A stretch of 64,000 nucleotides of DNA from an uncultured Planctomycetaceae bacterium (GCA_963815195.1 CAWFGE010000011.1:1-64000); one strand, 5' to 3'; shown: positions 3,444 through 23,703, numbered from the stretch's first letter. Numbers and translations are program-made. Notes: generated by a model not told the origin, from the letters alone.

Positions 3444-4805
3444 TCAGTTGAAACCTGTTGAGGCTGGCGATTGGCAACGGTTCATGCGTGCGCCAAAGTC
3501 GCGAAGAAACTCCTCTCGCCAGCGGTTGACTGTCCTCGCACCATGGTGCTCACCCTCAGCGAAATCCGGCTTGGGGTTGTCGGTCCACCAGTGAGGAAAC
3601 CGCGGCGAAGGATCCTTGGCCACCTCCGCTTCGGCGCGACGGCTGTAATCCCGCCCATCTGTCCATCAAGAGCAGATGTGTTGCTGCGAATTGTGAAGCG
3701 GTAGGATGTGGCAGCTTTCGGGCTGAAACGGAAACGGACGATCCCGTCACCAGGTATGTGGCCGATGAGCGCCCGGTTTTCGACGAGAAGTCGGGCTTCT
3801 GGCTTCATTGGATGATCGTTGCCAAGCGGAAGCGAAAGTTCTAGGATGCCGAACAGTTCCATCCGATCGTCCTTCGTCGTGAGCCGATCAAAATGTGCGG
3901 TGGGCCGCTCCCAAGCTCTCACAAACTGCCCACCCCAGCCCGGCTTCGCGGGGTCTTCCGGCGTGCCTTTCAAAAGCCAGGCGACCGACGGCGTGTCCCC
4001 CATCTTGACATCGTCTTTCTTGCTGACAAAGAAATCGCCGAGCGCCCCTGACCTGCGATGTGCTGTTTCACGAATTCCTTATTGCCCCACTCGCCCTTTT
4101 GATTGCCGCCGGTGAACCAACCGCGATAGGTGGAGTTGGCCTCGATGATCCTGAGTTTGGGGTGATGCGTCGCGATGTACTGATAGGCGTCCGGTCCCCA
4201 TTTCTTGTTTGGTCCGCCGATGTAATAGACTCGCAGTTTCGGCAGGATATCGGGAGCGTCGTGTAGGGCTTGAGCCACATCTTCGATGCCGCCCCAGACC
4301 AGAACGTAGAGCGGTCGTGGATCGTTACGCCGCGCACAGGCCACAATCCATTGGGAACCTTCCGTCGAGCGTCGGACGCCGGCATAGGGCGCGGCCTCGG
4401 TTTCACCCTGCTTCGTTATGGTCCGCAACGCATCCTGGCGTTGGATAATTGACGGAATAGGTTTTCAGATTGGGATAATCCTTCTCATAGCAATCGATGA
4501 CGTCCAGAATATGTTTCTTCCGCCCCGGACCAAATGGCGACGAAACAAGCCCCTCGATGTCGAGCACATCCGCATAGACGAGCAAATGCACCATCGACTG
4601 GAAGTCATCCGGATCGGTGCCTCCAATATCGGTCGAGACGATCACGCGATAACGCGCCAGCCAGCGCGCCGCCGTCGAGAGTCGAACTCGTCTCTGGGTC
4701 AACACTTTCGCTTTCTGCCGACCAGGCTTCGATGACTGATTGGCCGGCCAATAACAGCACAAAGACAATCACCCATTTTAAACTGGCGATTTTTTGCATA
4801 TCCAT
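3444..4805 (-). CDS. Secreted DUF1593 (nucleoside hydrolase-like) protein, split by several frameshifts
   Basis: Signal peptide; [42 protein letters not shown]-terminus WWTDNP...[17 protein letters not shown] in an alternate frame. Confidence 0.85.
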
Positions 4806-4840
4806 AGAAAAACTCCTCTTCAGAATCTGATTGAATGAAC

Positions 4841-5139
4841 CTAATCAACCGGGAGCCAAACGGTCATCTCGGGTGACCCGCGATTCGACCAGGCATAGTA
4901 GGGAAGCAGTGACGTTCGGAGGGGAATGCCCTCGGTTTGCTGAAACTTACGATAAAGCTGGCCTTGCCAGTCGGCACGACGCTTCGACGCAAACATTCCC
5001 TTGAGGACCGTGACTCCCTCAAGGAGATCCGCCTCAAAGCGCGGCTCCAGTTTGACATCGGCAGGGATTCGCAGAGGCATCGGCCGCGGACCTCGGTTCG
5101 TCCAGGCCGCGAGAAACGGTGAATCATCATCGTTCCCAT
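4841..5139 (-). pseudogene. GH127-like glycoside hydrolase remnant (C-terminal ~80 aa only)
   Basis: DLLEGVTVLKG...LLPYYAWSNRGSPEMTVWLP is the typical GH127 C-terminus; there is no room for the catalytic domain. Confidence 0.75.
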
Positions 5140-5155
5140 GTCACAAACTCCGGAT

Positions 5156-6133
5156 TCAATCGTTGGACTCACGCATGCGATCGATGGCCACGGCCACAAG
5201 GATCACGCCGCCCTTGACGACTTGTTGCCAGAACGGCGAAACATTCAGCAACACCAATCCGCTGTTGAGCACCCCAATAATCAAGCAGCCGATGACGGTG
5301 CCGAGGATCGTTCCGCGACCCCCTGAAAGTGACGTTCCGCCAATCACGACAGCGGCGATGCTGTCCAGTTCATACCCCATTCCCGCGTTGGGTTGAGCCG
5401 AGTCTAATCGCGAGGTCATCAGCAACCCTGCAACGGCGGATAACGCTCCCGCCAAGGTATAGATGACGATCTTAATGCGATTCACGTTCAGCCCGGACAA
5501 CTTGGCCGTCTGTTCGTTTCCACCGACAGCATAGATGTAACGCCCCAACCGCGTTTTCTTGGTCATCAAAACGAAGATGGCGACCAGGCCGGCAGCAATC
5601 CAGACAGGCGTGGGAACGCCCAACACCGATCGTGTTCCCAGCATCGCGAAGTCGTCGCCCAGGCCGGTGATGGGAAAGCCCTTGGTCCAGAGCATTGTCA
5701 GACCGCGGGCGATACTGAGCATGCCGAGCGTGGCGACGAAGGGGGGAATCCTCACACGAGTGATCATCTGCCCGTTGAACCAGCCCAGAAACATCCCCAC
5801 GAATAATCCAGCAATGATCGCTCCGAATGTCGTGAATTGCAGTTCCACGCCCAGCCAGGGCAGCGGAACCGGGGACTTGATCAGCCCGGCCGTAATCGCG
5901 CCGGCGAGTGCCAGAACCGAACCCACGGACAGGTCGATCCCGCCGGACAAGATCACCAGCGTCATGCCAATCGACAGGCAGACGTTCACGGAAATCTGCC
6001 GCATGATGTTCCAGCCGTTCGCCGGAGTCAGGAAGCGGTCCGACAACAGGCTCATCGCCCCGACCATCAAGACCAAAACGAGCAGCGATTGAAAACGGCT
6101 CGCATGTTGCCAGAATTTTGATTTGTCATGCAT
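5156..6133 (-). CDS. Monosaccharide (ribose-type) ABC transporter permease
   Basis: GGIDLSVGS, IPPFVATLG, GRYIYAVGGNE, GYELDSIAAVVIGG. Confidence 0.95.
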   Translation of the reverse strand: MHDKSKFWQHASRFQSLLVLVLMVGAMSLLSDRFLTPANGWNIMRQISVNVCLSIGMTLVILSGGIDLSVGSVLALAGAITAGLIKSPVPLPWLGVELQFTTFGAIIAGLFVGMFLGWFNGQMITRVRIPPFVATLGMLSIARGLTMLWTKGFPITGLGDDFAMLGTRSVLGVPTPVWIAAGLVAIFVLMTKKTRLGRYIYAVGGNEQTAKLSGLNVNRIKIVIYTLAGALSAVAGLLMTSRLDSAQPNAGMGYELDSIAAVVIGGTSLSGGRGTILGTVIGCLIIGVLNSGLVLLNVSPFWQQVVKGGVILVAVAIDRMRESND

Positions 6134-6169
6134 GGTGGATCATCAGGAAAGTAATTTCAGCCCTTCAAT

Positions 6170-7715
6170 TCAACTCTCGTTCCCAGCCGAGGCCCCAGGC
6201 ACGGCTGCTTCCATCAAGACCATTTCATTCGCAGCGGACCGGTCGAACTCGCCCGTCTTCTTTCCCTCGCACATGACCAGGATGCGATCCGCGATCCCCA
6301 ACAGTTCGGGCAACTCGGAGGAAACAACGACGATCGCCATTCCGTCTTGCTTCAGCCGATCGATCAGGGCATAAATCTCTCGTTTCGCGCTGACGTCGAT
6401 GCCTCGGGTCGGCTCGTCCAACATCAACACGCCTGGCTTTCTGGAAAGCACTTTGGAAAGGACCACCTTCTGCTGATTGCCGCCGCTAAGAGCACCCACA
6501 CGCTGCGCGACGTTCGGGGTCCGAATCGAGAATTGCTCGACAAACGACTGAGCGTGGTTCCGTTCGCGTCGACTGCTCAGCAACCCGCCTGACTCAATCT
6601 CGGAAAGACTCGAAAGGCTGATATTTTGTGCGACGCTCATCCCGAGAATCAGTCCTTGGTGCTTGCGGTCTTCGGGAACAAGTCCCAAGCCGCTGCGAAG
6701 TGCATCCTCTGGCAATTTGATCTCGCAAGGCACGCCGTCGATCGTGACACGTCCCCGTAGTCCTGCTGGGGTGCAAACCAAAGATCGATTCCAACAGTTC
6801 CGTGCGTCCCGCACCCATCAGCCCGAAAATCCCCAACACTTCGCCGCCACGGACGGAAAACGAAACCTGATCAACCAAGGGGCGTCGTGTGTTCTTATGG
6901 GTCAGCGTCAGCGACTCGATGTGCAATTTCACCGGACGGTTGGGCAAAGCGGGTGAATGGACGTAAAGGTCATCGAGTTGGCGGCCAACCATCAGTTGGA
7001 CGATCGCATCCCGATCAGTGTCAGATGTATCCACTGTGTCCACCAGCCGTCCATCACGCAGGACCGTAATGCGGTCACTGATAGCTAGCAGTTCGTCGAG
7101 CTTGTGGGACACGTAAACGATGGAGACGCCAGCATCCCGCAATGACCGGATCAGGCGGAACAGCGAATTCACTTCGTGGTCGCTGATCGCCGAAGTCGGT
7201 TCATCCATGAAGATCACCCGCGCCCTGGAATTGATGGCTTTGGCAATCTCGACGACTTGTTGTTGCCCGACTCGCAGACGATGGACTTCCGTACGAGGAT
7301 CAATCGAATCGTCCAAATCGGCCAAGAGCTTGCGGCATTGCCGGTTCTGGTCCTGTGAGCGAATGAGTCCGAGTTTGGAGACCAACTCGCGTCCAAGAAA
7401 AATGTTCTCCGCAACGGAGAGGTACGGAACAAGATTCAATTCCTGATGCACCAATGCAATGCCGCGGTCCATCGCCTCACGCGGATTGGCAAACTGAACC
7501 GGCTCGCCGTCCAACCGAACCACACCTTCATCGGCACGAGTGGCCCCAGCCAGGATGTGCATCAGCGTCGATTTCCCGGCCCCATTTTCGCCGATTAAGC
7601 CGTGGACTTCCCCAACTCGCACCGTGAAGTCGACTTGATCCAAAGCCAACACGCCGGGATAGCGTTTGACGATTCCCTCCGCTGCTAAGACAACCGGTTC
7701 GGAAGACTGGATCAC
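6170..7715 (-). CDS. Sugar ABC transporter ATP-binding protein (RbsA-like, two ABC domains; frameshift near 6770)
   Basis: GENGAGKST, MDEPTS, GLMGAGRTE, VPEDRK, LSGGNQQK, LDEPTRG; GTG start overlaps the upstream TGA. Confidence 0.93.
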
Positions 7716-8407
7716 GGGGATGGTCCCCCGTTGGAAGCATTGCTTGAACCGGCATCGGCTTTCTCGCTGCTGCGAACTTCCAGGCGAATGGGAATGAGAC
7801 ACAACGGATCGAGGTCGGAATCCCGGCCAACCTTGGTACACCCGACGAAATCCACGACCACGCCCGGCTTTAAGAGCGGCCGATTCGGCTTGATGACTTC
7901 TTCTTCGACGAGGCGATTGAGTTCCGACGAGACCGCGTTGAAATCCTGCGAGTTCGCAAAATCGCTGGCCTTCACACCGATGGCTTCGCGGACCGTGTTG
8001 TCCACAACCACTCCCAGTTCGAGGCAGGCGCGGCGGGAACTGCCAGTAATCGATAAAACACAACGGTTTTTCTCCACCGTTTCCACCGTGCCTTGTCCGC
8101 GGATGCAGAAATACCACGCCCCGCCCAGCCCCGCCTGTCGACCGTACTGGCTTCTGGCCTTGGCTGTGTCCGCATCAAAGGCGTTCCATAGCTGCTTGAT
8201 CTCCGAGCCAGGGTCGCTGGTTCTCAGCGGGCCGTTCCAAACATCGCGCACGTAAACTGCTGGATCAGCGGGACCGGATTTCGGCGTCGCGGATTGGTCC
8301 GGCGAACCTTGGCCCAACGGTCGGATGTGAAAGAGGGGAAAGAGCCAGCAAAGGATGCCGCCGACAATCAGCAACCCGCCCCCCACGAACAACGGCCTGC
8401 GCGACAC
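7712..8407 (-). CDS. DUF2291-family periplasmic protein
   Basis: N-terminal TM; NTVREA...SDFANSQDFNAVSSELN motif; lies between the SBP and the ATPase. Confidence 0.75.
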   Translation of the reverse strand: MSRRPLFVGGGLLIVGGILCWLFPLFHIRPLGQGSPDQSATPKSGPADPAVYVRDVWNGPLRTSDPGSEIKQLWNAFDADTAKARSQYGRQAGLGGAWYFCIRGQGTVETVEKNRCVLSITGSSRRACLELGVVVDNTVREAIGVKASDFANSQDFNAVSSELNRLVEEEVIKPNRPLLKPGVVVDFVGCTKVGRDSDLDPLCLIPIRLEVRSSEKADAGSSNASNGGPSP

Positions 8408-8409
8408 AA

Positions 8410-9367
8410 TTACTCCTTTTTCCCATACGCGGTGAAATCGTCGATGTTCTCTCGGGTTACGAGATCGACATTTACCGGGATCTTTTGAGAGAAATCACGT
8501 TTGTTGGTCGCCAGGTACTCGTGGGCATACTCCGCCGATGTCCGAGCCATCACCTTGGGGTATTGCATCACGGTCGCTGTGATCTTGCTTTCGCTGATCG
8601 ACTTAATCACGTCTTCCGAGCCGTCATAGCCGAAGACTTTCACCTGGTCGGCTTTTCCCGCCGCCAAGAGGGCTTGATACGCTCCCATCGCCATGGCATC
8701 GTTGCCGCAGAAGACGGCATCAATGTCGTCGTGCGATTGGAGGATCGATTCCAGGACCTCCATCGCTTTGTTGCGATCAAAGTCCGCACTCTGTTGGGCG
8801 ACCATCTTCAATCCCTCGTACCGATCGACGACGCTGTGAAAACCTTTCGAGCGGTTCCAGGTATTATTGTCTCCCACCAGCCCCAAGAGTTCCACGTACT
8901 TGCCTTTCTCGCCGACCTTCTCGACGAAGTACTTGCCGAGTTCCACGCAGCCCGAATAGTTATCCGACAAAAGCTGTGCCGTTGCGGCATCGTTCGAATT
9001 GATCTCGCGGTCGATACAAAACACAGGAATCCCTGCTTCCTTGGCACGTTTGACGTTGGCAATCGAGCCATCGGCATCGGTCGGATTGAACAGGATCGCC
9101 GAGTAATCTGCAGCGATGACATTGTCGAAATGATCTGCTTCCTTCGCTGTGTCGTTTTGCGAATCGAATATGGTCGCCTCGTAACCTAGTTCGACAGCCC
9201 GATCGCGAGCTGTCTCACCCAGGACAACGAACCAGGGATTGTTCATTGTGGAGACGATCACAGCAATTCTGGGCTTCTCCGATTTCTCGGCAGGACCCCC
9301 ACCGCATCCTGCCAGCAGGGTGAGCAGGCAGGGCGAGCGTTTTCATTGGAAAGCGGGTTCGATTCAT
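8410..9367 (-). CDS. Sugar ABC substrate-binding lipoprotein (RbsB/apiose-binding-like; frameshift in signal peptide)
   Basis: Lipobox LLAGC after re-joining; [32 protein letters not shown]. Confidence 0.92.
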
Positions 9368-9410
9368 GGGAGTCGCCTCTTTCGCAGGCAGGGGATTGTC
9401 GGCCGTGGTT

Positions 9411-9818
9411 TCAGAAGACCACGCCAGATTTGAGAATGACATTCGCATACGGGGTGCATTCGCCAGTCCGCACAATGACTTCACTCTCTTGAGAGAGCCG
9501 TTTGAACTCGCTATGCGGCACTTCTGTCAAGGCAGGTTTCATTTGATGGCTTTGAAAAACACCCATCATCTCCTCGAAAACTTTCGGGCTTTTCTGGTGG
9601 ATTTCGCTGGCCACCACAATCTCTTCGACCATCATCTCGCTCAACAAGGCATCCAGGGTGCGGACGAACGATGGGTATCCCTGTTCGATGGCCAGGTCGA
9701 TCCGCTTCACTTCAGCAGGAATGGGCAGTCCGGCATCGCACAATGTGATGGACGCCGTATGCCCGATCCGGCTGATCGCGTAGCTCAACTCGCTATTGAG
9801 CAATCGGGTTCGTTTCAT
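9411..9818 (-). CDS. rbsD: D-ribose pyranase
   Basis: LLNSELS..ISRIGHT, CDAGLPIP, IDLAI, PHSEFK, VRTGECTPYANVILKSGVVF. Confidence 0.95.
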   Translation of the reverse strand: MKRTRLLNSELSYAISRIGHTASITLCDAGLPIPAEVKRIDLAIEQGYPSFVRTLDALLSEMMVEEIVVASEIHQKSPKVFEEMMGVFQSHQMKPALTEVPHSEFKRLSQESEVIVRTGECTPYANVILKSGVVF

Positions 9819-9851
9819 CTGTCACCTTCAAAATCGGCATGAAAGATCAGT

Positions 9852-11021
9852 TCACGCTTTGTGGGGCACAACTTCGATTTTGACGCACTCGTCGAATTTT
9901 GTCACGGTGCCGAAACCCTCGACCAACTCATTGAGTCCCATCCGATGCGTAATAAGCGATGGGAAATGGTAGCGATTCGACTGCTGATGTAGGACCTTCA
10001 GCACCGGCCGCCAATTGGTCCCGCAATGAAAGACCGAGTGGATGTGCAGGTTCTTCGAGTTGATGTGTCGCATCACATCGAGCGGAACCGTCTTCCCGAG
10101 ATCGACCCAGTTGCCGACTTCGATCACCGTCCCGCCCTTGCGGACCATCTGCAGGGCTTCCAGGAAGACCTCAGGCTCTCCCGCCGATTCGATCACCAGG
10201 TCCGGGCCGACGCCTTCGGTCAGTTCCTTAGCCCGCTGAATCCGTTCTTCCACGCTCACTTTGGAAGCGTTCATCGTGACGTCTGCGTACAACTTCTTGG
10301 CCGTGTTCAGCCGCAGATCGGACAAGTCCGTGGCAATCGACAATCCTGCTCCCTGAATCCTCGCCATGATGCCGTGTAGGATGCCCAACGGGCCATTGCC
10401 CAGTACCGCCACCGACATCCCCGGACCGAAGCCTTCATTCACTGGGGCGAATGGCACCGCCGCCCGTGCAAGGGCATGATAGGCCACCGCCATTTCCTCG
10501 ACAAAGACGGCGACATCGGTGGACATGTCCTCAGGGATCTTGAACAGATGGGTCCGCGGCCGAATATACATGTACTCTGCGAAACCGCCGCGCAGGTACG
10601 GGGCTGTGTCGGCATTGGGATGCAGCCCATAGGCCTGGAGTTGGTTTTCGCAGGTGGTGTTGTTGTAGTGATTCCGGCAATACCAGCACTCGCCGCAGTT
10701 CACCTCGACCGCAATCGCCACCCGATCACCGGGCTTGAGCGGTTGGCCGTCATAGTCCATCGTCCGGGCGGCGTTGTCCCCGATCTCGACAATCGTCCCT
10801 ATGACTTCATGTCCTCCGATGTAGGGATAGATCGACTTGCCTCGGAGTTGCGTGGCCTCTCCCTTGTAGATGTGCCGGTCCGTCCCACAAATGCCAGTCA
10901 TCTCGACTTTCAGGATCGCCGAGTCGTGATCCATCTCCGGATAAGGATAGGTCCGCATCTCGGTTTTGCCGGGGGCTGTCATGGCGACGGCCCTGACTTT
11001 GGATGGGCTGGAACTGGGCAT
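9852..11021 (-). CDS. Zinc-dependent medium-chain alcohol/polyol dehydrogenase
   Basis: GICGTD, GHE, CGECWYC...C, GNGPLG. Confidence 0.92.
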   Translation of the reverse strand: MPSSSPSKVRAVAMTAPGKTEMRTYPYPEMDHDSAILKVEMTGICGTDRHIYKGEATQLRGKSIYPYIGGHEVIGTIVEIGDNAARTMDYDGQPLKPGDRVAIAVEVNCGECWYCRNHYNNTTCENQLQAYGLHPNADTAPYLRGGFAEYMYIRPRTHLFKIPEDMSTDVAVFVEEMAVAYHALARAAVPFAPVNEGFGPGMSVAVLGNGPLGILHGIMARIQGAGLSIATDLSDLRLNTAKKLYADVTMNASKVSVEERIQRAKELTEGVGPDLVIESAGEPEVFLEALQMVRKGGTVIEVGNWVDLGKTVPLDVMRHINSKNLHIHSVFHCGTNWRPVLKVLHQQSNRYHFPSLITHRMGLNELVEGFGTVTKFDECVKIEVVPHKA

Positions 11022-11177
11022 TCATCTCTCCTGCAGGGAACCTGTTTGATAGAACGGTGGTGGGGGAAACGGAATCGGAATGTGATGTCAACTCTGGAAT
11101 TGTCTCATGTGATACCCGACAAATCTTCCTCTGATTCGACAAAAACTCACGGAATGCTAAGGTGACGGGCAAACGGA

Positions 11178-12158
11178 TCAGAATTCTGTCTCGTTCGCTA
11201 AATCACTTGCAGCCATTCGCTCGTTGACTTCGGCCAGTCGGGGAAATGCGGCCTGAGTCCCGATGCGAGTGACGGTCAGTGCGGCGACGGTGCTGGCTCG
11301 ACGGCCCGCCTCTCGCAATGACATTCCCTCAGCGAGCGACACGGCCAGAGCCGCCGTGAAGGCGTCGCCCGCACCAGTGGTGTCCAGGGCATCAACCTTC
11401 ACCACCGGGATTTGCGTGGCGTCGGTGTCGTTTGCGACGAAGGCACCGTTGCCCCCCATCGTAAGAGCAACGGACTTCACCCCACGCAACATGAGCAACG
11501 TCGCCGCGGCGTATGCATCATCACGAGTATTGACTGGTTGCCCGACGAGAACTTCAATCTCAATCCTGTTCGGTACGCACACATCACAGAGGCGTAAAAG
11601 CTCATCCGGCAATTCCACAACTGGTGCCGGCGTGAGAATCGTTAATTTTCCCGCCGCCCGAGCCAAGCGAAACGCTTCCAGAGTCGCATCGAGCGGTGTT
11701 TCGAGTTGACAGACAACGGCATCGGCGTTCTGAATGACAACTGACGCATGCCTCACATCATCAGGCGTCAGCTCCGCATTGGCACCGGGCACCACGATGA
11801 TGCAATTCTCGGCCTTGTCATCAACGATAATTGCTGCGGTGCCAGTCGGCGAATTCGCGACTTGACGAATGAACTCGGTGTTGATCCCTTCGGCTTGATA
11901 CTGGCGAACGGCTTCCGCTCCTAACGAGTCGTTGCCGAGGCACGCCACGAATGCGACATCGGCACCCAGCCTCGCGGCGGCGACCGCCTGATTCGCTCCC
12001 TTACCTCCCATGCCATGATGCAGAGAATGACCCGTCACGGTTTCACCCGCCTGGGGAAACCGCGGTGTGCGAAACGTCAGATCGACATTGGCCGAACCGA
12101 TCACGCAAATGCGGCGGGCGTTTTTCATGAGCGTTTCCATTGTCAGCGACTGATGCAC
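11178..12158 (-). CDS. rbsK: Ribokinase
   Basis: GSANVDL, GETV, GGKGANQAVAAARLG, QLET, PAP, DTTGAGDAF. Confidence 0.93.
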   Translation of the reverse strand: MHQSLTMETLMKNARRICVIGSANVDLTFRTPRFPQAGETVTGHSLHHGMGGKGANQAVAAARLGADVAFVACLGNDSLGAEAVRQYQAEGINTEFIRQVANSPTGTAAIIVDDKAENCIIVVPGANAELTPDDVRHASVVIQNADAVVCQLETPLDATLEAFRLARAAGKLTILTPAPVVELPDELLRLCDVCVPNRIEIEVLVGQPVNTRDDAYAAATLLMLRGVKSVALTMGGNGAFVANDTDATQIPVVKVDALDTTGAGDAFTAALAVSLAEGMSLREAGRRASTVAALTVTRIGTQAAFPRLAEVNERMAASDLANETEF

Positions 12159-12222
12159 CAGTCGCCTGAAAAACCAAAGAATATAATCGATGCAAAAACG
12201 GATTGTGCCATTAGCGCCAATT

Positions 12223-13677
12223 TCATTTCTCGTTTCCTTTGATGTTGCAAATCACGCGTTGATAGAATGTTAAGGGCGGCGTACCGTTGTCGGTCGCTTC
12301 GAGAATGATGTGGATTTGCTTGCCGGGTTCATCGGGCACGACAAAGCTGGCATCGTCCGGCGAGTCGCTTTTGGATAGAGTCACATTCGTCGCCACCGAG
12401 TCCGCTTCGGAATACTGCCACCACCGAAACGTCAGTTCGTCGCCATCGGGATCCGTTGCTCTGGCCGCAAGTTTGACCGTTTCGCCCGGTTTCACTTCAC
12501 GCGTCAATTCTCCCCGCACATTCACGACAGGATGGTGGTTGGCTTCTTTGAACTCTTTCACGCACCAGTCGGCTCGTGCCGCAAAGTCGTTCTGGATTGC
12601 TCCGATCCAGCGCCATTGAGGCTTGAGGTAGGCAATCAACGCGGCATCGTTTGGGATCTCTTTCTTCAATCGCTGGCGGCCCCATGCCGATCCCGTGTAC
12701 CAGCGACCCGCGGGATAGTGATAGCCGGGCTCGGCCACAGGATCGAGCCACATGTTTTCACGAACCTTGACAAAACGCCCGCCCCAGCCGCCCCAGTCCG
12801 GTGACTCATCGCTCCGCAGGCCGTTCGGGATGTTGAAGAGGAATGCGGGCGAATCCCCTTCAGATCGGAAATCGCCTTCGTTGAATCCGTTGTCGCCCTT
12901 CACGTGAGCCTTATATAACGAGCACAGCGGGCCGTGGTCCTCCAGGATGTTGGCCTTCATCCATGAGCTGACCAAATAGGCCTGCTGCTCCGCCGGGATG
13001 TACTTCTTCCAGTGGTAAAATAGGGCGATGAACTGATCGGAAATGACTGTCTGAATGCCGAATTTGCCCCAGTGTGGCCGGATGGACTTCTGGTATGTCT
13101 CATCCTGCTCCCAGATGAAATAGAAGCGGATTTTCTTCGCGACCTCGGCCATCCTCTCGGGATGTTGTTCTTCAATCGTTTTCAGTGCCCGAGCAATGGT
13201 GTTTGTCCCGCCCCAGGCCTGAATCCAGACGGGACGTTCGTCCGACTCATCCAGCAGCACCTCAACAATCCGCTTAGAACCTGCGGTGACCTCGTCCATT
13301 TCCCCTTCGGCCTTCACGTTTCCGAGTAGCGTCCGGGCCTGAAGAAACTTTGGTGTGGGATAACGTGGGTCGTGTTTGACGAGGTTCGGATAGACTTTGG
13401 CATAGGCATCCAGATAGGGATTCACCCAGTCATCGCCCGCCCACTTGTGCCCGTGCGAGTGGTACTGTGAACTGGAAGTGATGATCCCCTCGACGTCGAA
13501 TTCGTTCGCGTAAAGCAGAAAACGAACCATCGAACACTCATCGTCGATTTCGCCATCGGTCGTGACGATCACGCGCGGTTTGTTCGAAGCCATTAGCGTG
13601 CAATCGGCCAGTGCGAGCGACGCCAGTGCGATGAGCACCAATCGGATTCTCGTGGTGTGAAATGGACTACTGCTCAT
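12223..13677 (-). CDS. Secreted DUF1593 protein with C-terminal Ig/REJ-like domain
   Basis: Signal peptide; RVIVTTDGEIDDECS, QAWGGTNT, SEGDSP, WGGWGGRF, QNDFAARADW, DPDGD, DNGTP. Confidence 0.9.
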   Translation of the reverse strand: MSSSPFHTTRIRLVLIALASLALADCTLMASNKPRVIVTTDGEIDDECSMVRFLLYANEFDVEGIITSSSQYHSHGHKWAGDDWVNPYLDAYAKVYPNLVKHDPRYPTPKFLQARTLLGNVKAEGEMDEVTAGSKRIVEVLLDESDERPVWIQAWGGTNTIARALKTIEEQHPERMAEVAKKIRFYFIWEQDETYQKSIRPHWGKFGIQTVISDQFIALFYHWKKYIPAEQQAYLVSSWMKANILEDHGPLCSLYKAHVKGDNGFNEGDFRSEGDSPAFLFNIPNGLRSDESPDWGGWGGRFVKVRENMWLDPVAEPGYHYPAGRWYTGSAWGRQRLKKEIPNDAALIAYLKPQWRWIGAIQNDFAARADWCVKEFKEANHHPVVNVRGELTREVKPGETVKLAARATDPDGDELTFRWWQYSEADSVATNVTLSKSDSPDDASFVVPDEPGKQIHIILEATDNGTPPLTFYQRVICNIKGNEK

Positions 13678-15082
13678 GGGGTTTCTCCAGTGTATTGATA
13701 TTGTTTTCGGGCTTCGTGTAATCAACGAACGCCGTCGGATCAGTGCCGTTGAGGTACTCCTCGACGTTGGTGTAGCCATCGCCGTCTTTGTCCGCGGAGT
13801 GGTCGTCCGCACTGTTTGCATTCAGGCCATACTTGACTTCCCATGCATCCGGCATGCCGTCATTGTCTGCGTCGGCGGGGGTTGTCCCACCCTGCAATTC
13901 GGGCCAGCCGCCCACATCACTCGGCGTGTCGATGATTCCATTTTTTCCATAGGTCGCCTTGCCATCGCGAACGTCTTCGATGATGCGGGAGTCGATCGAA
14001 TCCCGCTCAGGCAATGAACAGCCGGCCTGTTTGAGCACAGCCAGATACGCATCCTGCGGGGATTGCTGACGAATGGGCAGGGCGTCCCAGGGCGCGGCCA
14101 GTTTCATGAAGGAACTGCCACCCATGCCCAACCAATTGTCACCGGTGACTTCCGGAGAACCCTCGACAAAATTGTCTGCCACATACCAGTTGCCGTAATC
14201 GTCATCGCCGCGGGACGAAGGCTTCGCAATACGATCCCTCACGTCGTTTCGCGTGGCGGGGCCGGGTTTGTAGTAGTTGGCCACCATGTTAATGGTCGAG
14301 TGCTCGATAGGTGGCTTTCGCCGATCGCCTTTTTGATGGGCTTCGGCGCCATAACAACTTTCATATCCCCAGTTGTACAGCACGTTGTTGCGGTAATCGT
14401 TGTAGCCACAGCCCGAGGCCCAGCGGGGGTTACGACTGTCATTGTGAGCAATCAGATTGTGATGATAGGTGCCGCGATGGTTTCCCCAGATGCCGCCGAA
14501 GCGATGCGACCCATCGGCCTTGGCGCAGGCTTCCGTGATCATGCACCATTGAATCGTGACATCTTCATTGTGGTACAGGGATAGCACCTCGTCGCTGCTC
14601 CAACTGGTCGACAGGTGATCCAAAATGATGTTCTTCTTGTATCTTCCGCCGACCGCGTCACCCTCGTGGTCGGTTCTTACCCGGAGATACCGAATCACGA
14701 CATCATTGGCATCAATGCCGAGATTGCCTTTGATCGTGATTCCATCTCCCGGTGCCGTCTGCCCAGCGACTGTTATATGATCCTGTCGGATTCTCACATC
14801 TCCATCGATCGTGCCCGCCACCTTGAAGACGACGATTCGCGGTCCCTGGGCCTCACACGCCGCTTGAAGGCTGCCCGGTCCCGAGGCATTGAGGTTGGTC
14901 ACCGCAATCACCTTGCCACCACGCCCTCCGGTTGTCTTTGCGCCATAACCCTCCGCGCCGGGAAAGGCGGGCACGGCAGTCGGTGTCGAGGTCTTGGGTT
15001 GCTTATCAGCCAAAGAGGCGGAAGTGAAGAACAAACATGTCAGCATCACGGAGGCGATTCGGTTGGATGGGATCTGCGTCAT
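13667..15082 (-). CDS. Secreted pectate lyase-like protein (PL1 type)
   Basis: PAFPGAEGYG, TGGRGG, VTNL..SGPGSL, GQTAPG, IILDHLSTSWSSDE, HHNL..HNDSRNPR; C-terminal DxDxDG motifs. Confidence 0.9.
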   Translation of the reverse strand: MTQIPSNRIASVMLTCLFFTSASLADKQPKTSTPTAVPAFPGAEGYGAKTTGGRGGKVIAVTNLNASGPGSLQAACEAQGPRIVVFKVAGTIDGDVRIRQDHITVAGQTAPGDGITIKGNLGIDANDVVIRYLRVRTDHEGDAVGGRYKKNIILDHLSTSWSSDEVLSLYHNEDVTIQWCMITEACAKADGSHRFGGIWGNHRGTYHHNLIAHNDSRNPRWASGCGYNDYRNNVLYNWGYESCYGAEAHQKGDRRKPPIEHSTINMVANYYKPGPATRNDVRDRIAKPSSRGDDDYGNWYVADNFVEGSPEVTGDNWLGMGGSSFMKLAAPWDALPIRQQSPQDAYLAVLKQAGCSLPERDSIDSRIIEDVRDGKATYGKNGIIDTPSDVGGWPELQGGTTPADADNDGMPDAWEVKYGLNANSADDHSADKDGDGYTNVEEYLNGTDPTAFVDYTKPENNINTLEKPHEQ

Positions 15083-15203
15083 GAGATGTCCTATGGTAAA
15101 TAGGGGGGCTGGTGATCTTCGAAATTGCATTTCCTGTTTGATGGTAGGAAGCTCATGGTCGTCTGTCGGTGAGCTCGCTAGCGGATACTCTGCTGCCGTT
15201 TCT

Positions 15204-16607
15204 TCATTTGATATTGAAAATGATGCGCTGGTAACCCACGAGAGACGGCGTACCGTTGTCGGTCACTTCGAGAATGATTTGAATCTGTTTGCCGGGTTCG
15301 TTCGGCACCTCAAAACTGGCCTTGTCCAGCGATTCACTGTTCACGATGGTTACGGCGGCCTTAGCGGAATCGGCATCGGCGTATTGCCACCATTTGGAAG
15401 TGAGCTTGTTGCCATCGGGATCGGTAGCGGTCGCCGTGAGCTTTACGGTCTCTCCAGGCTTCACCTCGCGCTGGTAAGGGCCGTTGACTTTCGCGACGGG
15501 CGCGTGGTTGGCTTCCTTGAAGTCTTTGACGCACCAATCCATGCGGGCCGCAAAATCGTTTTGCGCTGCGGGAACCCAGCGCCAATACATCTTGTTGCGA
15601 TTGCCGTCCTCCTCAAGTTTGTTGTCGGTGAGATGATTGGGAAACTTCGGATCGTCGTAAGCAGATCGTCCACCCCAACCGCCGAGCGTGTAATCGCGGT
15701 GTGCCTCCAGGCCGTTGTTCACCAGGTGCAGGAACGACGGCGTGTCGCCTTCGCTGATGTATTTCTGGGGAGTCATCGCGCCGAGCGGACCATGGCCGAC
15801 CTTGACGTTCACATCCAGCCAGGCGGGTTTCATGTATTCCTGAATCTCGGGCGGATTCGAACTGAGTTTGCCCTTGGCACGGGCGTTGTCGTGGCTCTCG
15901 TAGTCCCAAACGTTGTCCCAGCGGTAGGCTTCGTTGATGTACGCCTGCGGAATATTCTCCTGAATCCATTTGCCGCCGCCGTCCTGATACCAGATGCAGT
16001 AGATGCGGATCCGCGACGCAGCATATTCAAACTTGTCCAAAGGGTATTCCGTTTTCAGTTTCCACAACGCCGACGCCGTGGTGTTCGCGCCGCCCCAGGA
16101 GAGGACGTGAACGGGCCGCGGGTCATCGTCGAGCAGCGTGTCAATGATGAGTTGGGCACCGGGCGTGTCTTTTGTCTGCATATCCGGCGGGGCAACATAG
16201 AGATCCTTGCTGTTCTCGTTCCCGACCCGCACCACACGGCGCAAGGACTCGGTATCCGGGTAATCCGAGTTGTGTTTGCGAAGGTTCGGCAGAATCCTCT
16301 CATAGGCGTCGAGTTGGGCTTCGATCCACTTTTTGTCGCTGTGCCCGTTCTTTTGGAACCTGGAGTTGACCTGCACAATGCCCACGACATCGAAATCACA
16401 AGCATAGAGCAGGAATCGTATCATGCTGCTGCGGTCGTCCACCTCACCGTCGGTGGTGGCGATGACACGAGGCTTCCGTGATGCGTCGGCAGCCAACATG
16501 GTGCCCCGTCCAATTGTGAAGTAGCAGCTGGCCCCCAGCAGCAATCCGAGAATTTGCCAAACTCGCAAGACGTTGATGAATCGAGTGGTGCGGTCGGGTG
16601 GGTTCAT
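15204..16607 (-). CDS. Secreted DUF1593 protein with C-terminal Ig/REJ-like domain
   Basis: Signal peptide; RVIATTDGEVDDRSS, SWGGANT, SEGDTPSF, GGWGGR, QNDFAARMDW. Confidence 0.9.
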   Translation of the reverse strand: MNPPDRTTRFINVLRVWQILGLLLGASCYFTIGRGTMLAADASRKPRVIATTDGEVDDRSSMIRFLLYACDFDVVGIVQVNSRFQKNGHSDKKWIEAQLDAYERILPNLRKHNSDYPDTESLRRVVRVGNENSKDLYVAPPDMQTKDTPGAQLIIDTLLDDDPRPVHVLSWGGANTTASALWKLKTEYPLDKFEYAASRIRIYCIWYQDGGGKWIQENIPQAYINEAYRWDNVWDYESHDNARAKGKLSSNPPEIQEYMKPAWLDVNVKVGHGPLGAMTPQKYISEGDTPSFLHLVNNGLEAHRDYTLGGWGGRSAYDDPKFPNHLTDNKLEEDGNRNKMYWRWVPAAQNDFAARMDWCVKDFKEANHAPVAKVNGPYQREVKPGETVKLTATATDPDGNKLTSKWWQYADADSAKAAVTIVNSESLDKASFEVPNEPGKQIQIILEVTDNGTPSLVGYQRIIFNIK

Positions 16608-16725
16608 TTCGTTGTACCTCCGAGAACTGTTTGCCAGATAGAGCTTCCCAATTCACGAAATGCTATCCGAAAATCTGGCGAGTTCTTCCTGTTTTCGAGT
16701 CATCTCTCACGGTATCCTAATGGGA

Positions 16726-17586
16726 ATGCAGAAATTCGATAACACCCGGCCGGAGTTTTCGCCTTATGGGTTCACCTGCGAACAGTGGACTCCGGCCCGC
16801 ATGCCTCGACCGGACCGACACAGCGAGATCGAAGTCAACCTCCTTCGATCCGGTTCGCTGACGTATCTCTTCGGTGGACACCGCACCACGATCGATGCCG
16901 GTCGGCTGGCTCTCTTTTGGGCTGCAATTCCGCATCAAATCGTCGCCTTCGAGGGCGATTCACCGTATTACGTTGTGACGTTGCCGTTGAGCGAGTTCCT
17001 GCGAACGGGACTGGAATTGGACGTGGTGAATCGGATTCTTCACGGCGAGATTCTGGTCGATTCTGCCACCGACACCTGCGACGAACCCAAGTTTCAGCAA
17101 TGGGAACGCGACCTCCGAATGAGAGATGCGGCAAATGAGCGGGCGGCGCGGCTGGAAGTTCAAGCTCGGTTGCTTCGGTTGGCCTCCGGCCTATCAAAAC
17201 ACCCAACAGCACCGAAGTCGGCCCCCGATTTGTCCCGCGCCGATCAGTTGGCATGCTACATCGCGAGGAATTACCACCTACCCATCACAGCCAAATCGAT
17301 CGCTGATGCCAACGGCGTGCATCCGAACTATGCCATGACTCTCTTCCGTCAAACATTTGGCACGACGATGACCACTTTCGTCACCCAACACCGCATCTCG
17401 CATGCTCAGCGTTTGCTGGTCACCACGGACGAGGCAATCCTGAATATCGCGCTGGATGCTGGCTTTCAAAGCCTCAGTCGGTTCAACGAAGCCTTCAAAG
17501 CCGCCTGTGGGTGCTCGCCGCGCGACTATCGCAAGGCACATCGATTCGTCGAGAAGCCAATCATCGCCCCCAAGCGGATGAAGTGA
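16726..17586 (+). CDS. AraC-family transcriptional regulator (MelR-like)
   Basis: Cupin HSEIEVN...FWAAIPHQ; HPNYAM, IALDAGFQSLSRFN, SPRDYR; divergent from the sugar operon. Confidence 0.93.
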   Translation: MQKFDNTRPEFSPYGFTCEQWTPARMPRPDRHSEIEVNLLRSGSLTYLFGGHRTTIDAGRLALFWAAIPHQIVAFEGDSPYYVVTLPLSEFLRTGLELDVVNRILHGEILVDSATDTCDEPKFQQWERDLRMRDAANERAARLEVQARLLRLASGLSKHPTAPKSAPDLSRADQLACYIARNYHLPITAKSIADANGVHPNYAMTLFRQTFGTTMTTFVTQHRISHAQRLLVTTDEAILNIALDAGFQSLSRFNEAFKAACGCSPRDYRKAHRFVEKPIIAPKRMK

Positions 17587-18622: not shown

Positions 18623-18746
18623 AAGCGGCCTTTTGGATTTTCTGGAGCGCTTCGATCGCGGCTTTCGCTTTTTCGATGCTGCCCAGCTTCTCCACGAACT
18701 GTCGCATTTTCAGGACGGCGTGTTCTTTGGGTTTGCTGTCGGCCAC
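18621..18746 (-). CDS. 41-aa mini-protein homologous to the C-terminus of the adjacent basic protein
   Basis: AAAGGA RBS then GTG; MADSKPKEHAVLKMRQFVEKLGSIEKAKAAIEALQKIQKAA*. Confidence 0.7.
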   Translation of the reverse strand: MADSKPKEHAVLKMRQFVEKLGSIEKAKAAIEALQKIQKAA

Positions 18747-18884
18747 CAGATTTCCTTTCTGAGAATCGCGGCTTCGGGAATCTTCCCTTTTGATCGGCAA
18801 GGGCGATTGTGGAAGTTGAACGAAGTCGGGCGGAGAGAATTACGCCCCATCTGAATTGAGCCGGGGCTGGGCCGCCCGTGGAGC

Positions 18885-19175
18885 CTAGGGTTTGTCGCCC
18901 AGTTCCGCCTGGAGTTGGTTAGCCGGCCTTTGATCTCGGCGATGATCTGCTGATGCTGCGGGTCATGGTAGGCGTTTTGGGTTTCGTGCGGATCACCGGC
19001 CAAGATCATAAAACTCCCACCGCCGAGCGGGCGACTGCTTGCGGAGGCCTCGTAATAGATCAGCTTGTGCTTCGTGGTGCGGATGCGCGTACCCTGCGAA
19101 TGACCAGCGATGAGTTTTTCGGCCGGCACGCCGGGAATCGGAAATGAGATTTGATCGTCGTGGATGTTCTTCATC
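18885..19175 (-). pseudogene. Sulfatase C-terminal remnant
   Basis: IRTTKHKLIYY...DPHETQNAYHDPQHQQIIAEIKGRL with several frameshifts; no N-terminus. Confidence 0.55.
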
Positions 19176-19222
19176 ACTGGTAGCAATGCTCCACCTCGCG
19201 CCGGGCGGCTTGGTCGTGATGG

Positions 19223-19456
19223 ATGACCCCTGCGATGCAACTGGATGTTCTGAAGCGACTGATCGCCCTGGATGCGGCGCTGGCTGGCATTGGCTTGAGC
19301 GTCAGCGAATTCGCCGCCGAGCATAAGATCGACCCGAAGACGGTGCGACGCGATCTCGATTTGCTCCGCGCGGCGGGGTGCCAGATCCCGCTGGGTTCGA
19401 CCGCATCCGGGCCACGTATTTCGGTATGCGGATCCCCGCCGAACGCTCTTCTCTGA
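19223..19456 (+). CDS. Small HTH protein (like the N-terminal HTH of WYL/PafB regulators), possibly truncated
   Basis: LSVSEFAAEHKIDPKTVRRDLDLLRAAG. Confidence 0.55.
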   Translation: MTPAMQLDVLKRLIALDAALAGIGLSVSEFAAEHKIDPKTVRRDLDLLRAAGCQIPLGSTASGPRISVCGSPPNALL

Positions 19457-19473
19457 GTGGGCCCAGGCGGAAG

Positions 19474-19517
19474 CAGGGCGATAGTTTCCATTGACGCCAA
19501 TAGAAACTATCGCCCTG
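19474..19517. repeat. 44-bp near-perfect palindrome
   Basis: CAGGGCGATAGTTTC-cATTGacgcCAATa-GAAACTATCGCCCTG. Confidence 0.85.
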
Positions 19518-19627
19518 GGGCCCCAGTCGGCCGCCTGGCGGGGATTCTGGCCTTGGGGCGGGTTCTGGGCCCCGGGCGCGCGGCGGGCCTTGGCGGGTCG
19601 CTGGGTGGTCCAGCAAAAAAGGCAAAA

Positions 19628-19672
19628 TAGCGGACCGGTTAGTTGACCACGCTTAACGGACCATAGTGGACC
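19628..19672. repeat. Four 9-bp direct repeats, putative integrase arm-type sites
   Basis: TAGCGGACC, TAGTTGACC, TAACGGACC, TAGTGGACC, about 45-90 bp from the tRNA 3' end. Confidence 0.6.
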
Positions 19673-19715
19673 AAATTGGCTTGTCCTAAGTCCTTTGTAT
19701 TTCTTGGTTTAGGAG

Positions 19716-19789
19716 TGGTCCCGACAGGACTCGAACCTGTAACTTCTACCTTGTAAGGGTAGCACTCTAGCCGATTGAGTTACGGGACC
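19716..19789 (-). tRNA. tRNA-Val (anticodon TAC), CCA not encoded
   Basis: Minus strand GGTCCCGTAACTCAATCGGCTAGAGTG-CTACC-CTTACAA-GGTAG-AAGTTACAGGTTCGAGTCCTGTCGGGACCA folds as a cloverleaf. Confidence 0.97.
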
Positions 19790-19796
19790 GTGGGGT

Positions 19797-21292
19797 TTAT
19801 CTTACGGCGGGCGGCGGTTTTTGCAATTGTGAGTTCGCCAGGTGTTGCCGCAGTTGTCGGATCAGGTCGGGGCGGGAGTCGGCGATGTTTTGGCTGCTGT
19901 CGAGATTGCCGGAAAGATCATAAAGAGCCGTGTGGGGCTCGCCTTGTTTGGTCTTCCCGAGGATGAGGCGATGCGTGGCGGAGCGGATGCTGACGGCATC
20001 GCCCCAGTAACTGACCGCTGCCTCCCGCACACTCGAGGCTTCGCGTTGGAGAATCGGGACGAGGGATTTTCCGTCCAGCGGCCATTGAGTTTGCTGGAAC
20101 GTTGGGTGACAGAGATCGATCAAGGTCGGATACAGATCGATCGTTTCCACCAATGCGCTGGTTTTGCTGCCGGGGCCGGAGAGTCCGCGAGCGCGGATCA
20201 TCAGCACGCTGCGGTTGGCTCGTTCGAAGGGCGTGTGCTTGGCCCAAATTTCTTGCTCGCCCAAATGCCAGCCGTGATCGCCCCACACGATGACGACCGT
20301 GTTCTTGTCCAGGCCGAGTTTTTTGAGTTCCGCGAGCACCCGGCCGACTTGCCGATCGACATACCGCACGCAGGCATAATACGCCCGGCGGGCGGTGCGC
20401 TGGGCGGCGGGAGAGAGCGGATGCGTTTTCTTGAAGGGGGCGTCGTATTTGTAAAACTCGCCGCTCGCGTGCCAATAAGGCGAGCCGATCTTCCCTTCGG
20501 GCGGGAGCGGGATGTCGCTGTTTTCAAAGGCTTCCCAATCCCGGCGTGTCGCCACGAACGGCAAGTGCGGTTTGAAGAACCCCACGCCCAGGAAAAACGG
20601 TTCCGGCGAGGATTTGAAGGCCCGCAAATGGTCGATGGCCGTCGCCGCGAGCAGGCCGTCGGGAAGGTCTTCGTCCTTCTCGGCGGTGAACTCCATCAGG
20701 TCGCTATGGCCGCCGCCGTCTTCGCGATGTTTTCCATTTGCATAAGCGAAGAAAATCCCCCAGCCGCGTTTCCAGGGGCCGAACGGTGTGGGCAGTTCAT
20801 CCCAAGCGTTCGGGAGTTCCGGCCGGCCGTCGCCCGAACCGTTATACGCGTAGACCCGGCCGTCGGGTGTGTGGGAGATTTTGCCGATCGAGGCGGTGTG
20901 ATAGCCGGAACGCCGGAAAAGTTCAGGCAGCGATTGGGCACCCGGTTGCGGATTGGGTTTGAGGGCGGATTTGCCTTGATAGGCCGCGGCGTTATTTCGC
21001 GTGACGCCCGAATGGGCGGGGCTGCGCCCGTGAGCAGCGCATACCGCGAAGCTCCGCAAGTCGCGACTTGGACGTAATGCCGATCGAACACCACGGCCGA
21101 TTCCGCGAACCGGTCCAAGTTCGGCGACTGCGCCGCCTTCACGCCGTAACAACCGAGTTCCGGCCGCAGATCATCGATCGCAATAAACAGCACATTGTAA
21201 GGGTTGGTTTCCTCGCCCGCGGCGAAGCTCCATGAAACACACGAGGCGAAGGCCAACCACGGCCAGACGTAGGCCAATTTACTTTTCAGCAT
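19797..21292 (-). CDS. Secreted S1 sulfatase (iduronate-2-sulfatase-like; frameshift near 21030)
   Basis: NVLFIAIDDLRP, CGASRYALLTG, GKISH, GFFKPHLPF, WGDHGWHLGE. Confidence 0.9.
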
Positions 21293-23544: not shown

Positions 23545-23703
23545 CGTTCCGTTCTCGTTTTCTCGAAGGAGCAAAAAGTCCAGGACCACAAACCGCTGTG
23601 GTTCTCCGTTTGAGAAACGATAGAAGCATTAAAAGTGGATGTCAAGGTCCAGTTTTAGATTTTGGGGAAACCCCCGAAGCGATTTGGGCTGGGTCAGCAC
23701 ACG

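Follow-up and report, generated by a model that had tools for sequence, protein, structure and literature searches.

The D-apiose transketolase cluster comprises ApsI or two short-chain dehydrogenases/reductases, the kinase AplK, the split transketolase AptAB and an ATP-binding cassette (ABC) importer in the order binding protein-DUF2291-ABC, and the pathway was reportedly first described by Carter et al. 2018. Four routes of apiose breakdown have been described (PMC13753588), and strains with an apiose cluster of the Escherichia coli SE15 type grow on this sugar (PMC13001218). The locus treated here lies at positions 3444–17586 of the window, which is the first 64 kb (64,000 nucleotides) of a 116 kb contig from an uncultured Planctomycetaceae bacterium (GCA_963815195.1, CAWFGE010000011.1:1-64000), with a genome of 8.9 Mb that is 94.6% complete (G000). 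It encodes an importer with a DUF2291 protein, the ribokinase-family kinase RbsK, a Zn-dehydrogenase (ZnDH), the mutarotase RbsD, a lyase like those of polysaccharide lyase family 1 (PL1) and three DUF1593 proteins (Table 1). An original prediction made from the DNA sequence had read it as a system in which secreted DUF1593 proteins release ribose or a similar furanose; gene content, gene order and Asp motifs are as claimed there, and the AraC gene is located on the plus strand, facing away from the run of genes on the minus strand. The ZnDH, which was passed over, is the least explained part of the locus.

Importer and exchange of catabolic modules

The importer has the gene order binding protein-DUF2291-ATPase-permease of the E. 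coli SE15 apiose cluster, with identities of 35% for the binding protein, 41% for the ATPase and 38% for the permease. The complete ribose-type uptake and catabolism set that had been predicted is present as far as RbsK and RbsD, which score above their cut-offs, and the importer genes are concerned, but DUF2291 was overlooked and the genes for the binding protein and the ATPase are frameshifted. The binding protein has its closest solved relative in the ribose-binding protein of Thermotoga maritima (TM0958, 2FN8), and shows 221 bits to the RbsB model NF007936 with a cut-off of 337 (283-residue frame). Its polar ligand motifs are kept, and do not separate ribose binders from apiose binders; we take 5IBQ to hold apiose and 4RY0 ribose, both being titled only 'probable ribose ABC transporter'. 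Labels of this kind on DUF2291-type importers may hide apiose uptake. Besides the binding protein, the T. maritima genome shares DUF2291, RbsD and a ribokinase with the window, and it also encodes a PF13204 protein. Its rbs operon further contains a transketolase and two enzymes predicted to act on D-arabinose (PMC3750489), and the control genome shows no match to PF07632. The 'ribose' operon of T. maritima may serve apiose as well as ribose, a joint role so far unrecognised.

The 80 best binding-protein loci, in which the binding protein is 71–89% identical to that of the window and the closest relatives are named Planctomycetota records, contain DUF2291 in 78 cases. At least two of the PF02952 FucI-like isomerase, an FGGY kinase, TktN and TktC are found in 47 of them, and RbsK, ZnDH or RbsD in seven, with no locus having both sets; many of the remaining 26 are short or have the module elsewhere. 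The enzymes of these sister loci are 46–54% identical to AptA, 37–45% to AptB and 32–39% to AplK of E. coli. AplK and the four operon kinases inspected all have a GDS/KAT or GDS/KVT signature, the glycerol-kinase type being GDQ or GDH/KNT. In a midpoint-rooted tree the E. coli AplK falls outside the group of operon kinases, and the AplK label therefore rests on synteny, the GDS signature and moderate identity. We infer that the PF02952 isomerase also acts on apiose.

Compared with the E. coli SE15 cluster, RbsK, ZnDH and RbsD replace the catabolic genes in the window, and no orthologue of the replaced genes was found elsewhere in G000. A search of this genome for the D-apiose transketolase pathway gave no FucI-like match, a best FGGY kinase of 36% identity with a glycerol-kinase motif, and transketolase halves of 32–43% identity in other contexts, the xylose-isomerase-type ApsI not being searched for. 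Whole-genome searches covered 50 of the 80 genomes, selected as close relatives with long contigs, and an intact ZnDH orthologue (84–89% identity) is present in six. Four of these have only a glycerol-kinase-type FGGY protein (39–43%), as G000 does, and two have no match at E 1e-90. The AplK-like operon-type kinase is found in 42 of the 44 genomes without intact ZnDH and is recognisable in none of the seven intact-ZnDH genomes, G000 included. Likewise, the FucI-like isomerase was found neither in G000 nor in the four ZnDH genomes tested, and is present in G456, where the ZnDH is a fragment.

The binding-site columns of the binding protein are identical with both module types. In the binding-protein tree, made from 21 rows of the ZnDH type and 47 of the transketolase type with unlabelled loci and three distant rows left out, the ZnDH-type proteins are scattered, and a single clade is rejected (approximately unbiased test, p 0.0007); the groups were labelled before the tree was made, and the test was run after the first tree had been seen. 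The catabolic modules are exchanged behind an unchanged binding protein, which points to an uncharacterised enzyme. By these comparisons of sequence the cassette plausibly encodes an undescribed route by which apiose would be released from pectin and enter ribose metabolism. A published description of an apiose-linked ZnDH/RbsD cassette was not found in a search with most subscription papers outside its reach. Removal of the branch, or linearisation, is the chemically interesting step of apiose breakdown, and a further route based on one dehydrogenase would, if true, extend the chemistry of a widespread fold, or would at the least supply a novel apiose dehydrogenase. The genes of this compact cassette are intact in the cultured Roseiconus nitratireducens JC645 (locus L055).

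The Zn-dehydrogenase and the proposed route

In a survey of relatives of the ZnDH, 80 metagenome loci were dereplicated to 62 groups, none of which contains the transketolase module. The 38 loci with at least 70% identity include 29 with the importer, a PF13204 apiosidase-like gene or DUF1593, and 22 with RbsD. The conserved core is the ZnDH with RbsD, RbsK being rare in these loci. Genes of the PF13204 type are located near the ZnDH in 18 of the 62 loci; the majority belong to distant DUF5060/DUF5605 forms (E about 1e-17 to 1e-19), and a few match more strongly (E 4e-68 and 2e-38). The AraC family of the window regulator is found beside the ZnDH in 18 of 62 loci as well. In a low-GC lineage RbsK, DUF2291, ATPase, permease, binding protein, RbsD and ZnDH are clustered, and 5IBQ/4RY0 are the nearest relatives of this binding protein (E 4e-102). 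On a contig of 36% GC beside trp genes (L152:7026-11337), belonging to a separate lineage, the ZnDH (77%) directly precedes a DUF1593 gene followed by an alpha-L-fucosidase gene, which is the same pairing. The ribokinases beside the ZnDH form four groups, only 28–41% identical to each other, as expected if ordinary ribokinases were recruited for a shared product, and a ribokinase over the cut-off is present in all seven ZnDH genomes.

The residues C45, H71 and E72 (CGTD and GHE motifs), the structural C109, C112, C115 and C124, G208-G213 (GxGPxG) and D232, predicted to contact NAD, are invariant in 61 of 61 ZnDH sequences. The nearest structure is TM0436 of T. maritima (1VJ0; Z 41.2, 28% identity), and the model shows no feature separating the candidate reactions. 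An orthologue is absent from a phylum-wide sample of 400 other genomes, which contains two homologues of 39–42% identity, and the contexts of four distant homologues gave no clue to the substrate. The names attached to matches in the homologue searches were assigned automatically and carried no information. Relatives of 62–65% identity in L169, L172, L177, L179 and L182 are accompanied by LacI regulators, other ABC importers and M24 peptidase-like genes, and their substrate may differ. A second, decayed AraC-DUF1593-RbsK-ZnDH-RbsD copy is located at L216:4389-10500 (G455:C45), with the intact one in the same genome.

We suggest, as a plausible reading that falls somewhat short of probable, that the locus is an apiose-pectin cassette in which the DUF1593 proteins release apiose and the uncharacterised ZnDH routes it to RbsD and RbsK. 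The polymer is likely an apiose-containing pectin, rhamnogalacturonan II (RG-II) or apiogalacturonan (PMC5607165), and Bacteroides thetaiotaomicron uses a PL1 lyase and an apiosidase to cut RG-II (10.64898/2026.03.13.711244). The PL1-like lyase would cut the galacturonan backbone of apiogalacturonan or RG-II type, and the DUF1593 paralogues would bind Ca2+ through D41, D45, D46 and D275, grip the 2,3-cis-diol of the furanoside and hydrolyse the O-glycoside; the candidate acid in DUF1593_A and DUF1593_B is Glu273, located in the EGD motif. The DUF2291-type importer would take up apiose, and probably ribose too. Inside the cell the ZnDH would do the job that isomerase, kinase and split transketolase have in the sister loci, RbsD would act on the ring forms by interconversion, and phosphorylation by RbsK would give ribose 5-phosphate to feed the pentose-phosphate pathway.

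The only cytoplasmic enzymes of the cassette are RbsK, ZnDH and RbsD, so if the sugar is apiose the branch must be handled by the ZnDH or by unlinked genes. PF16896, PF00016 and PF02733 have no match in G000; PF16896, Dak1 and the RuBisCO-like families are presumably markers of the oxidative apiose/apionate routes. As no match to a PF16896/DUF1537/RuBisCO-like cluster is found in G000, at 94.6% completeness, a ZnDH product acceptable to RbsD and RbsK is favoured. The C2 configuration of D-ribose matches that of D-apiose, and in the simplest scheme, which is favoured although rather unlikely taken by itself, the ZnDH would oxidise one hydroxymethyl arm with NAD, a 1,2 (alpha-ketol) shift would give a linear keto-pentose, and this would be reduced again to D-ribose. 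To our knowledge no such sequence of oxidation, shift and reduction occurs in the medium-chain dehydrogenase fold. The D-apionate oxidoisomerase ApnO is comparable in that it couples NAD/metal-dependent oxidation to a carbon shift on an apiose-derived sugar (PMC13753588), but it has a fold like that of ketol-acid reductoisomerase and acts on the acid, whereas such a reaction is only proposed for the medium-chain enzyme of the window. It is decidedly unlikely that all parts hold together, i.e. that the ZnDH is a one-step apiose-to-ribose isomerase without net redox change which, with RbsD and RbsK, replaces a four-gene route, and that DUF1593 is a new Ca2+-dependent apiofuranosidase family on the nucleoside hydrolase (NH) fold.

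A DUF5060 and PF12904 protein at G000:C13:608831-610321, without PF13204 match, is 63% identical to a gene in the ZnDH locus L185 and, judged from this likeness, is possibly an unlinked member of the system. At L241:19085-19975 an AraC gene with the N-terminal sequence pattern of the window regulator is located near a PF16896-type cluster; this AraC family may tag apiose loci of several route types.

A number of observations weigh against the apiose-pectin proposal. RbsK is present in only three of the 38 close ZnDH loci, an apiose-type marker in only three of the 24 loci below 70% identity, and a ribokinase over the cut-off also in 17 of the 44 genomes without ZnDH. RbsK and RbsD of the window exceed the cut-offs of ribose-specific models. 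The cassette contains no aldolase, transketolase or decarboxylase, G000 has no PF13204 match over the cut-off, and the ZnDH model shows the usual medium-chain fold and nothing that would suggest special chemistry. Further, 2FN8 is a ribose-bound structure (PMC2630998), and ribose induces the T. maritima operon, whose linkage with a ribokinase is conserved in eight Thermotogales (PMC3750489). The extra enzymes in three Thermotogales operons are predicted to be D-arabinose enzymes (PMC3750489), and the apiose label on the isomerase-kinase-transketolase module therefore rests on homology of 32–54%. In a survey of 20 related genomes with PF07632, where 14 gave 20 regions and six with short contigs or fragments were left out, neither catabolic module (transketolase or RbsK/ZnDH/RbsD) is found in any of the 20 DUF1593 regions. 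The ZnDH genome G454 has an unclassified kinase fragment of 139 residues (47%) at a contig end. Most of the assemblies are incomplete, and the ZnDH genomes that were searched as a whole, all of them from related planctomycetes, are not independent.

It is possible, if unlikely, that D-ribose itself is released and used, the DUF1593 proteins being Ca2+-dependent beta-ribofuranosidases acting on a glycan of ribose and uronate, such as a bacterial exopolysaccharide, and the ZnDH handling a side product, for instance ribitol. This would agree with RbsK and RbsD, which exceed curated cut-offs and are the only ribokinase over the TIGR02152 cut-off and the only RbsD match of G000, with the closeness of the binding protein to the ribose-binding protein of T. 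maritima and its kept polar ligand motifs, and with DUF1593 genes, of NH fold, interleaved with rbsK in four other genomes. It leaves unexplained why the ZnDH and not RbsK is the core, the PF13204-like neighbours in 18 of 62 loci, and the occurrence of the same binding site and of DUF1593 orthologues with AplK/AptAB-like enzymes elsewhere. The furanose-releasing role that had been predicted still fits, but the comparative data favour apiose over ribose as the sugar.

An improbable variant keeps apiose as the sugar and makes the ZnDH a new D-apiose 1-dehydrogenase forming apionolactone, with RbsD giving the ring form, apionate passing to unlinked oxidative genes or being excreted, and RbsK serving co-imported ribose. 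This is ordinary chemistry for the fold, and further types of apiose dehydrogenase are expected (PMC13753588). PF16896 occurs in three of the seven ZnDH genomes versus eight of the 44 others, once beside a DUF1537 kinase and a RuBisCO-like gene, a distribution that also counts against a product for RbsD and RbsK. However, PF16896 was not found in G000, the cultured Roseiconus and two others, a Dak1 kinase is present in none of five genomes tested, and RbsD/RbsK accompany the transketolase module in none of the 47 loci, so that they seem tied to the ZnDH and not to the importer.

It is quite improbable that the two modules act on some other pentose or on a polyol, for example D-arabinose, by isomerase and kinase in most genomes and by dehydrogenase, mutarotase and ribokinase here. 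D-arabinose enzymes are predicted in the T. maritima operon (PMC3750489) and the isomerase belongs to PF02952, named only L-fucose/L-arabinose isomerase-like, but the split transketolase, the AplK-type signature, DUF2291 and the neighbours of PF13204, PL1 and glycoside hydrolase family 127 (GH127) type fit apiose better.

The DUF1593 proteins

The model of DUF1593_B, the one paralogue whose fold was modelled, superimposes on 2YHG, the only solved member of the family, with Z 43.0 and a root-mean-square deviation (rmsd) of 2.2 over 390 aligned residues, and on the inosine-uridine nucleoside hydrolase (IU-NH) 2MAS with Z 17.7 and an rmsd of 3.6 over 248 residues. The nucleoside-hydrolase-like fold stated for this family in the original prediction is supported by this overlay of a model, and the Ca2+-type Asp cluster is intact: D41, D45, D46 and D275 are invariant in all 54 aligned DUF1593 sequences, as are Ser49 and Trp155, at a mean column identity of 28%. 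The first Asp of the DxDxxxDD motif is Thr or Ser in DUF1593 and the first loop is longer in many paralogues, the correspondence to NH residues being made by motif and spacing. The Asp spacing of the Ca2+ site in nucleoside hydrolases, which the DUF1593 cluster matches, is given in PMC8910321. DUF1593_A and DUF1593_B exceed the cut-offs of PF07632 and PF21027, and all three PF07632 genes of G000 are located in the cassette, indicating that their clustering is not due to chance. Of the three secreted paralogues that had been predicted, these two are intact with their Asp motifs, while DUF1593_C is broken by four frameshifts; signal peptides were judged by eye.

In the C-terminal region of Sde_0182 from Saccharophagus degradans (2YHG; PF07632 and PF21027, formerly DUF1593) the same two-domain fold and Asp cluster are found, with a reported Ca2+ site (PMC8910321). 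The DUF1593 proteins of the window differ in being stand-alone exported paralogues without carbohydrate-binding modules, located in an importer and catabolic cassette, and DUF1593_A and DUF1593_B have a short loop of NH length (DxxxDD). With IU-NH (2MAS and kin) they share the fold, the Asp pair in the first loop and an Asp about 230 residues further on, and differ by an identity of only 9–16% to NH structures, Thr/Ser for the first Asp, Gly at the position of His241, an extra beta-sandwich and export. A fused GH10 domain with a full DUF1593 unit is found at L063:14574-17030. RusGH/RusNH of B. thetaiotaomicron resembles DUF1593 as an exported Ca2+-dependent enzyme with weak activity on p-nitrophenyl-ribose, encoded beside ribokinases (10.1101/574913), but transport is of SusC/D type and not ABC, and it is apparently no DUF1593 protein. 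RusGH was rejected as a precedent for DUF1593 activity, as PF07632 has no match in the B. thetaiotaomicron control genome.

In nucleoside hydrolases the leaving group is activated by His, Trp or Cys before the last Ca-Asp, with exceptions listed (PMC8910321). This residue, His241 in the classic enzymes, is Gly in 54 of 54 DUF1593 sequences, and the residue preceding that Gly is Glu in 41 sequences and, in the class to which DUF1593_C belongs, Met (13 sequences). The founding member Sde_0182 was inactive on purine and pyrimidine nucleosides (PMC8910321), which together with the Gly makes a nucleosidase unlikely and a furanoside O-glycosidase a reasonable inference from sequence and model. The DUF1593 proteins have no match to PF13204 (GH140 apiosidase), and the cassette offers a direct functional test of the family, for which no activity is known although a structure was solved in 2011. 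It is very improbable that they are non-catalytic furanose-binding proteins with the cutting done by other hydrolases: a furanose-interacting module has been hypothesised for the inactive founding member (PMC8910321) and there is no His241 equivalent, but the four Asp, Ser49 and Trp155 are invariant, the tests of the founding member were on nucleosides, and the G000 cassette contains no other intact glycoside hydrolase. Barely credible are exported nucleoside hydrolases feeding a ribose salvage operon, as the original prediction allowed, for which the NH fold and RbsK/RbsD speak, since Sde_0182 is inactive on nucleosides, identity to NH structures is low, the neighbours are of pectin type, and no nucleobase genes recur in the 80 + 80 loci at the cluster depth examined.

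Linkage of DUF1593 to rbsK and rbsD, which the original prediction had proposed as a check, exists in several other planctomycete genomes, where the genes are interleaved, including the cultured Roseiconus, but is narrow. DUF1593 is found within 10 kb in 33 of the 80 binding-protein loci by tblastn, a count preferred to the 48 of 80 from a single-linkage cluster of open reading frames (ORFs), which had chained in wrong members. These 33 comprise 17 with the transketolase module, five with the RbsK/ZnDH/RbsD module and 11 with neither in the stretch examined. Orthologues of DUF1593_A, DUF1593_B and DUF1593_C (at least 60% identity) are present in one, three and seven transketolase-type loci respectively, and are thus common to both module types. 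In the 20 DUF1593 regions of related genomes rbsK, rbsD and the binding protein are all absent. Two congeners keep AraC-PL1-DUF1593_B (80–86%) without DUF1593_A and without the importer, and a search of three congeners gave no match to the binding protein.

Gene inventory, frameshifts and flanking genes

Table 1. Genes of the cassette in the window, with positions counted from its first nucleotide (E, expectation value; pLDDT, predicted local distance difference test).
Gene	Position	Strand	Features	Best evidence
AraC/MelR-like regulator	16660..17586	+	divergent from cassette	PF12833, PF02311; NF007693 below cut-off
DUF1593_A	15204..16607	-	NH fold; TTDGEVDD...EGD; hydrophobic N-terminus	PF07632 E 2e-70, PF21027; 2YHG E 1e-63
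PL1-like pectate lyase	13667..15130	-	C-terminal TSP3 repeats; likely start 15082	NF041900 E 1e-37, below cut-off; 9BUJ E 2e-40
DUF1593_B	12223..13677	-	NH fold; TTDGEIDD...EGD	PF07632 E 5e-73; model pLDDT 88
RbsK, ribokinase-family kinase	11178..12158	-	sugar-site and GAGD residues kept	TIGR02152 360 bits, cut-off 299.65
ZnDH, medium-chain, uncharacterised subfamily	9852..11021	-	candidate entry enzyme	PF08240/PF00107; no NCBIfam cut-off reached
RbsD-type pyranase/mutarotase	9411..9818	-	full-length alignment to solved RbsD proteins	NF008761 175, cut-off 93
Sugar-binding lipoprotein of ABC importer	8410..9367	-	one frameshift in signal peptide	2FN8 E 3e-113; 5IBQ/4RY0 E 2e-58
DUF2291 gene	7712..8407	-	between binding protein and ATPase	PF10054 E 2e-31
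ABC ATPase (RbsA-type)	6170..7715	-	one frameshift near 6757	
ABC permease (RbsC-type)	5156..6133	-		PF02653; NF007067 below cut-off
GH127 C-terminal remnant	4841..5074	-	synteny with L055	59% over 76 aa to intact GH127 of L059
DUF1593_C	3444..4805	-	motif [11 protein letters not shown]...MGD; four frameshifts in assembly	intact orthologue without PF21027

The sugar-site residues of RbsK are Asn/Asp/Asn/Glu, and the protein remains below the cut-off of NF008353 (302 versus 341). The nearest solved relative of the PL1-like lyase is the pectate lyase 9BUJ. DUF1593_C matches PF07632 in pieces. The GH127 remnant was correctly recognised as such in the original prediction: only about the last 76 residues are left, a C-terminal tail without match to the catalytic domain PF07944. 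In Roseiconus L055 the same cassette is surrounded by five DUF1593 genes, PL1 and an intact GH127, and about 3 kb with another DUF1593 gene and most of GH127 are missing from the window. The alignment of a contig from sequencing run X1 is broken by many small gaps at window positions 5074-5128, which border the GH127 remnant, and a close strain may differ at the deletion.

Compared with two intact orthologues, DUF1593_C has frameshifts at about 4655, 4430, 4048 and 3631 and is not an open frame; the frameshift of the binding-protein gene, in the signal peptide, lies at about 9325. Outside the locus 15 of 75 matched ORFs, which include some overlapping duplicates, span more than one frame, or about one per 6 kb, and the cover by long ORFs is 0.70 inside contigs versus 0.49 within 4 kb of contig ends. 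Assembly error is thus a plausible cause of the frameshifts in the locus. However, four in 1.3 kb of DUF1593_C far exceed the average of the assembly, and the gene follows the GH127 deletion. Among public DNA contigs, one from another strain (97% identity) lacks the extra base at 4436, an identical one ends at 4048, and positions 3631 and 4655 are unbridged. Among the sequencing runs listed as containing this DNA there is no RNA run.

The promoter scan of the window gave counts near the level of shuffled DNA (8 versus 5.3 +/- 2.1), and likewise the terminator scan (23 versus 14.8 +/- 3.9); neither was used. The sole Rfam match in the window is a tRNA outside the locus (19716-19789). It is located in a region (18710-21292) that also contains a sulfatase gene split by a frameshift (19797-21292) and a short C-terminal sulfatase remnant (18710-19324). 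A ThiF-family gene is located near the contig start (267-914), and a protoglobin-family gene at 22951-23589.

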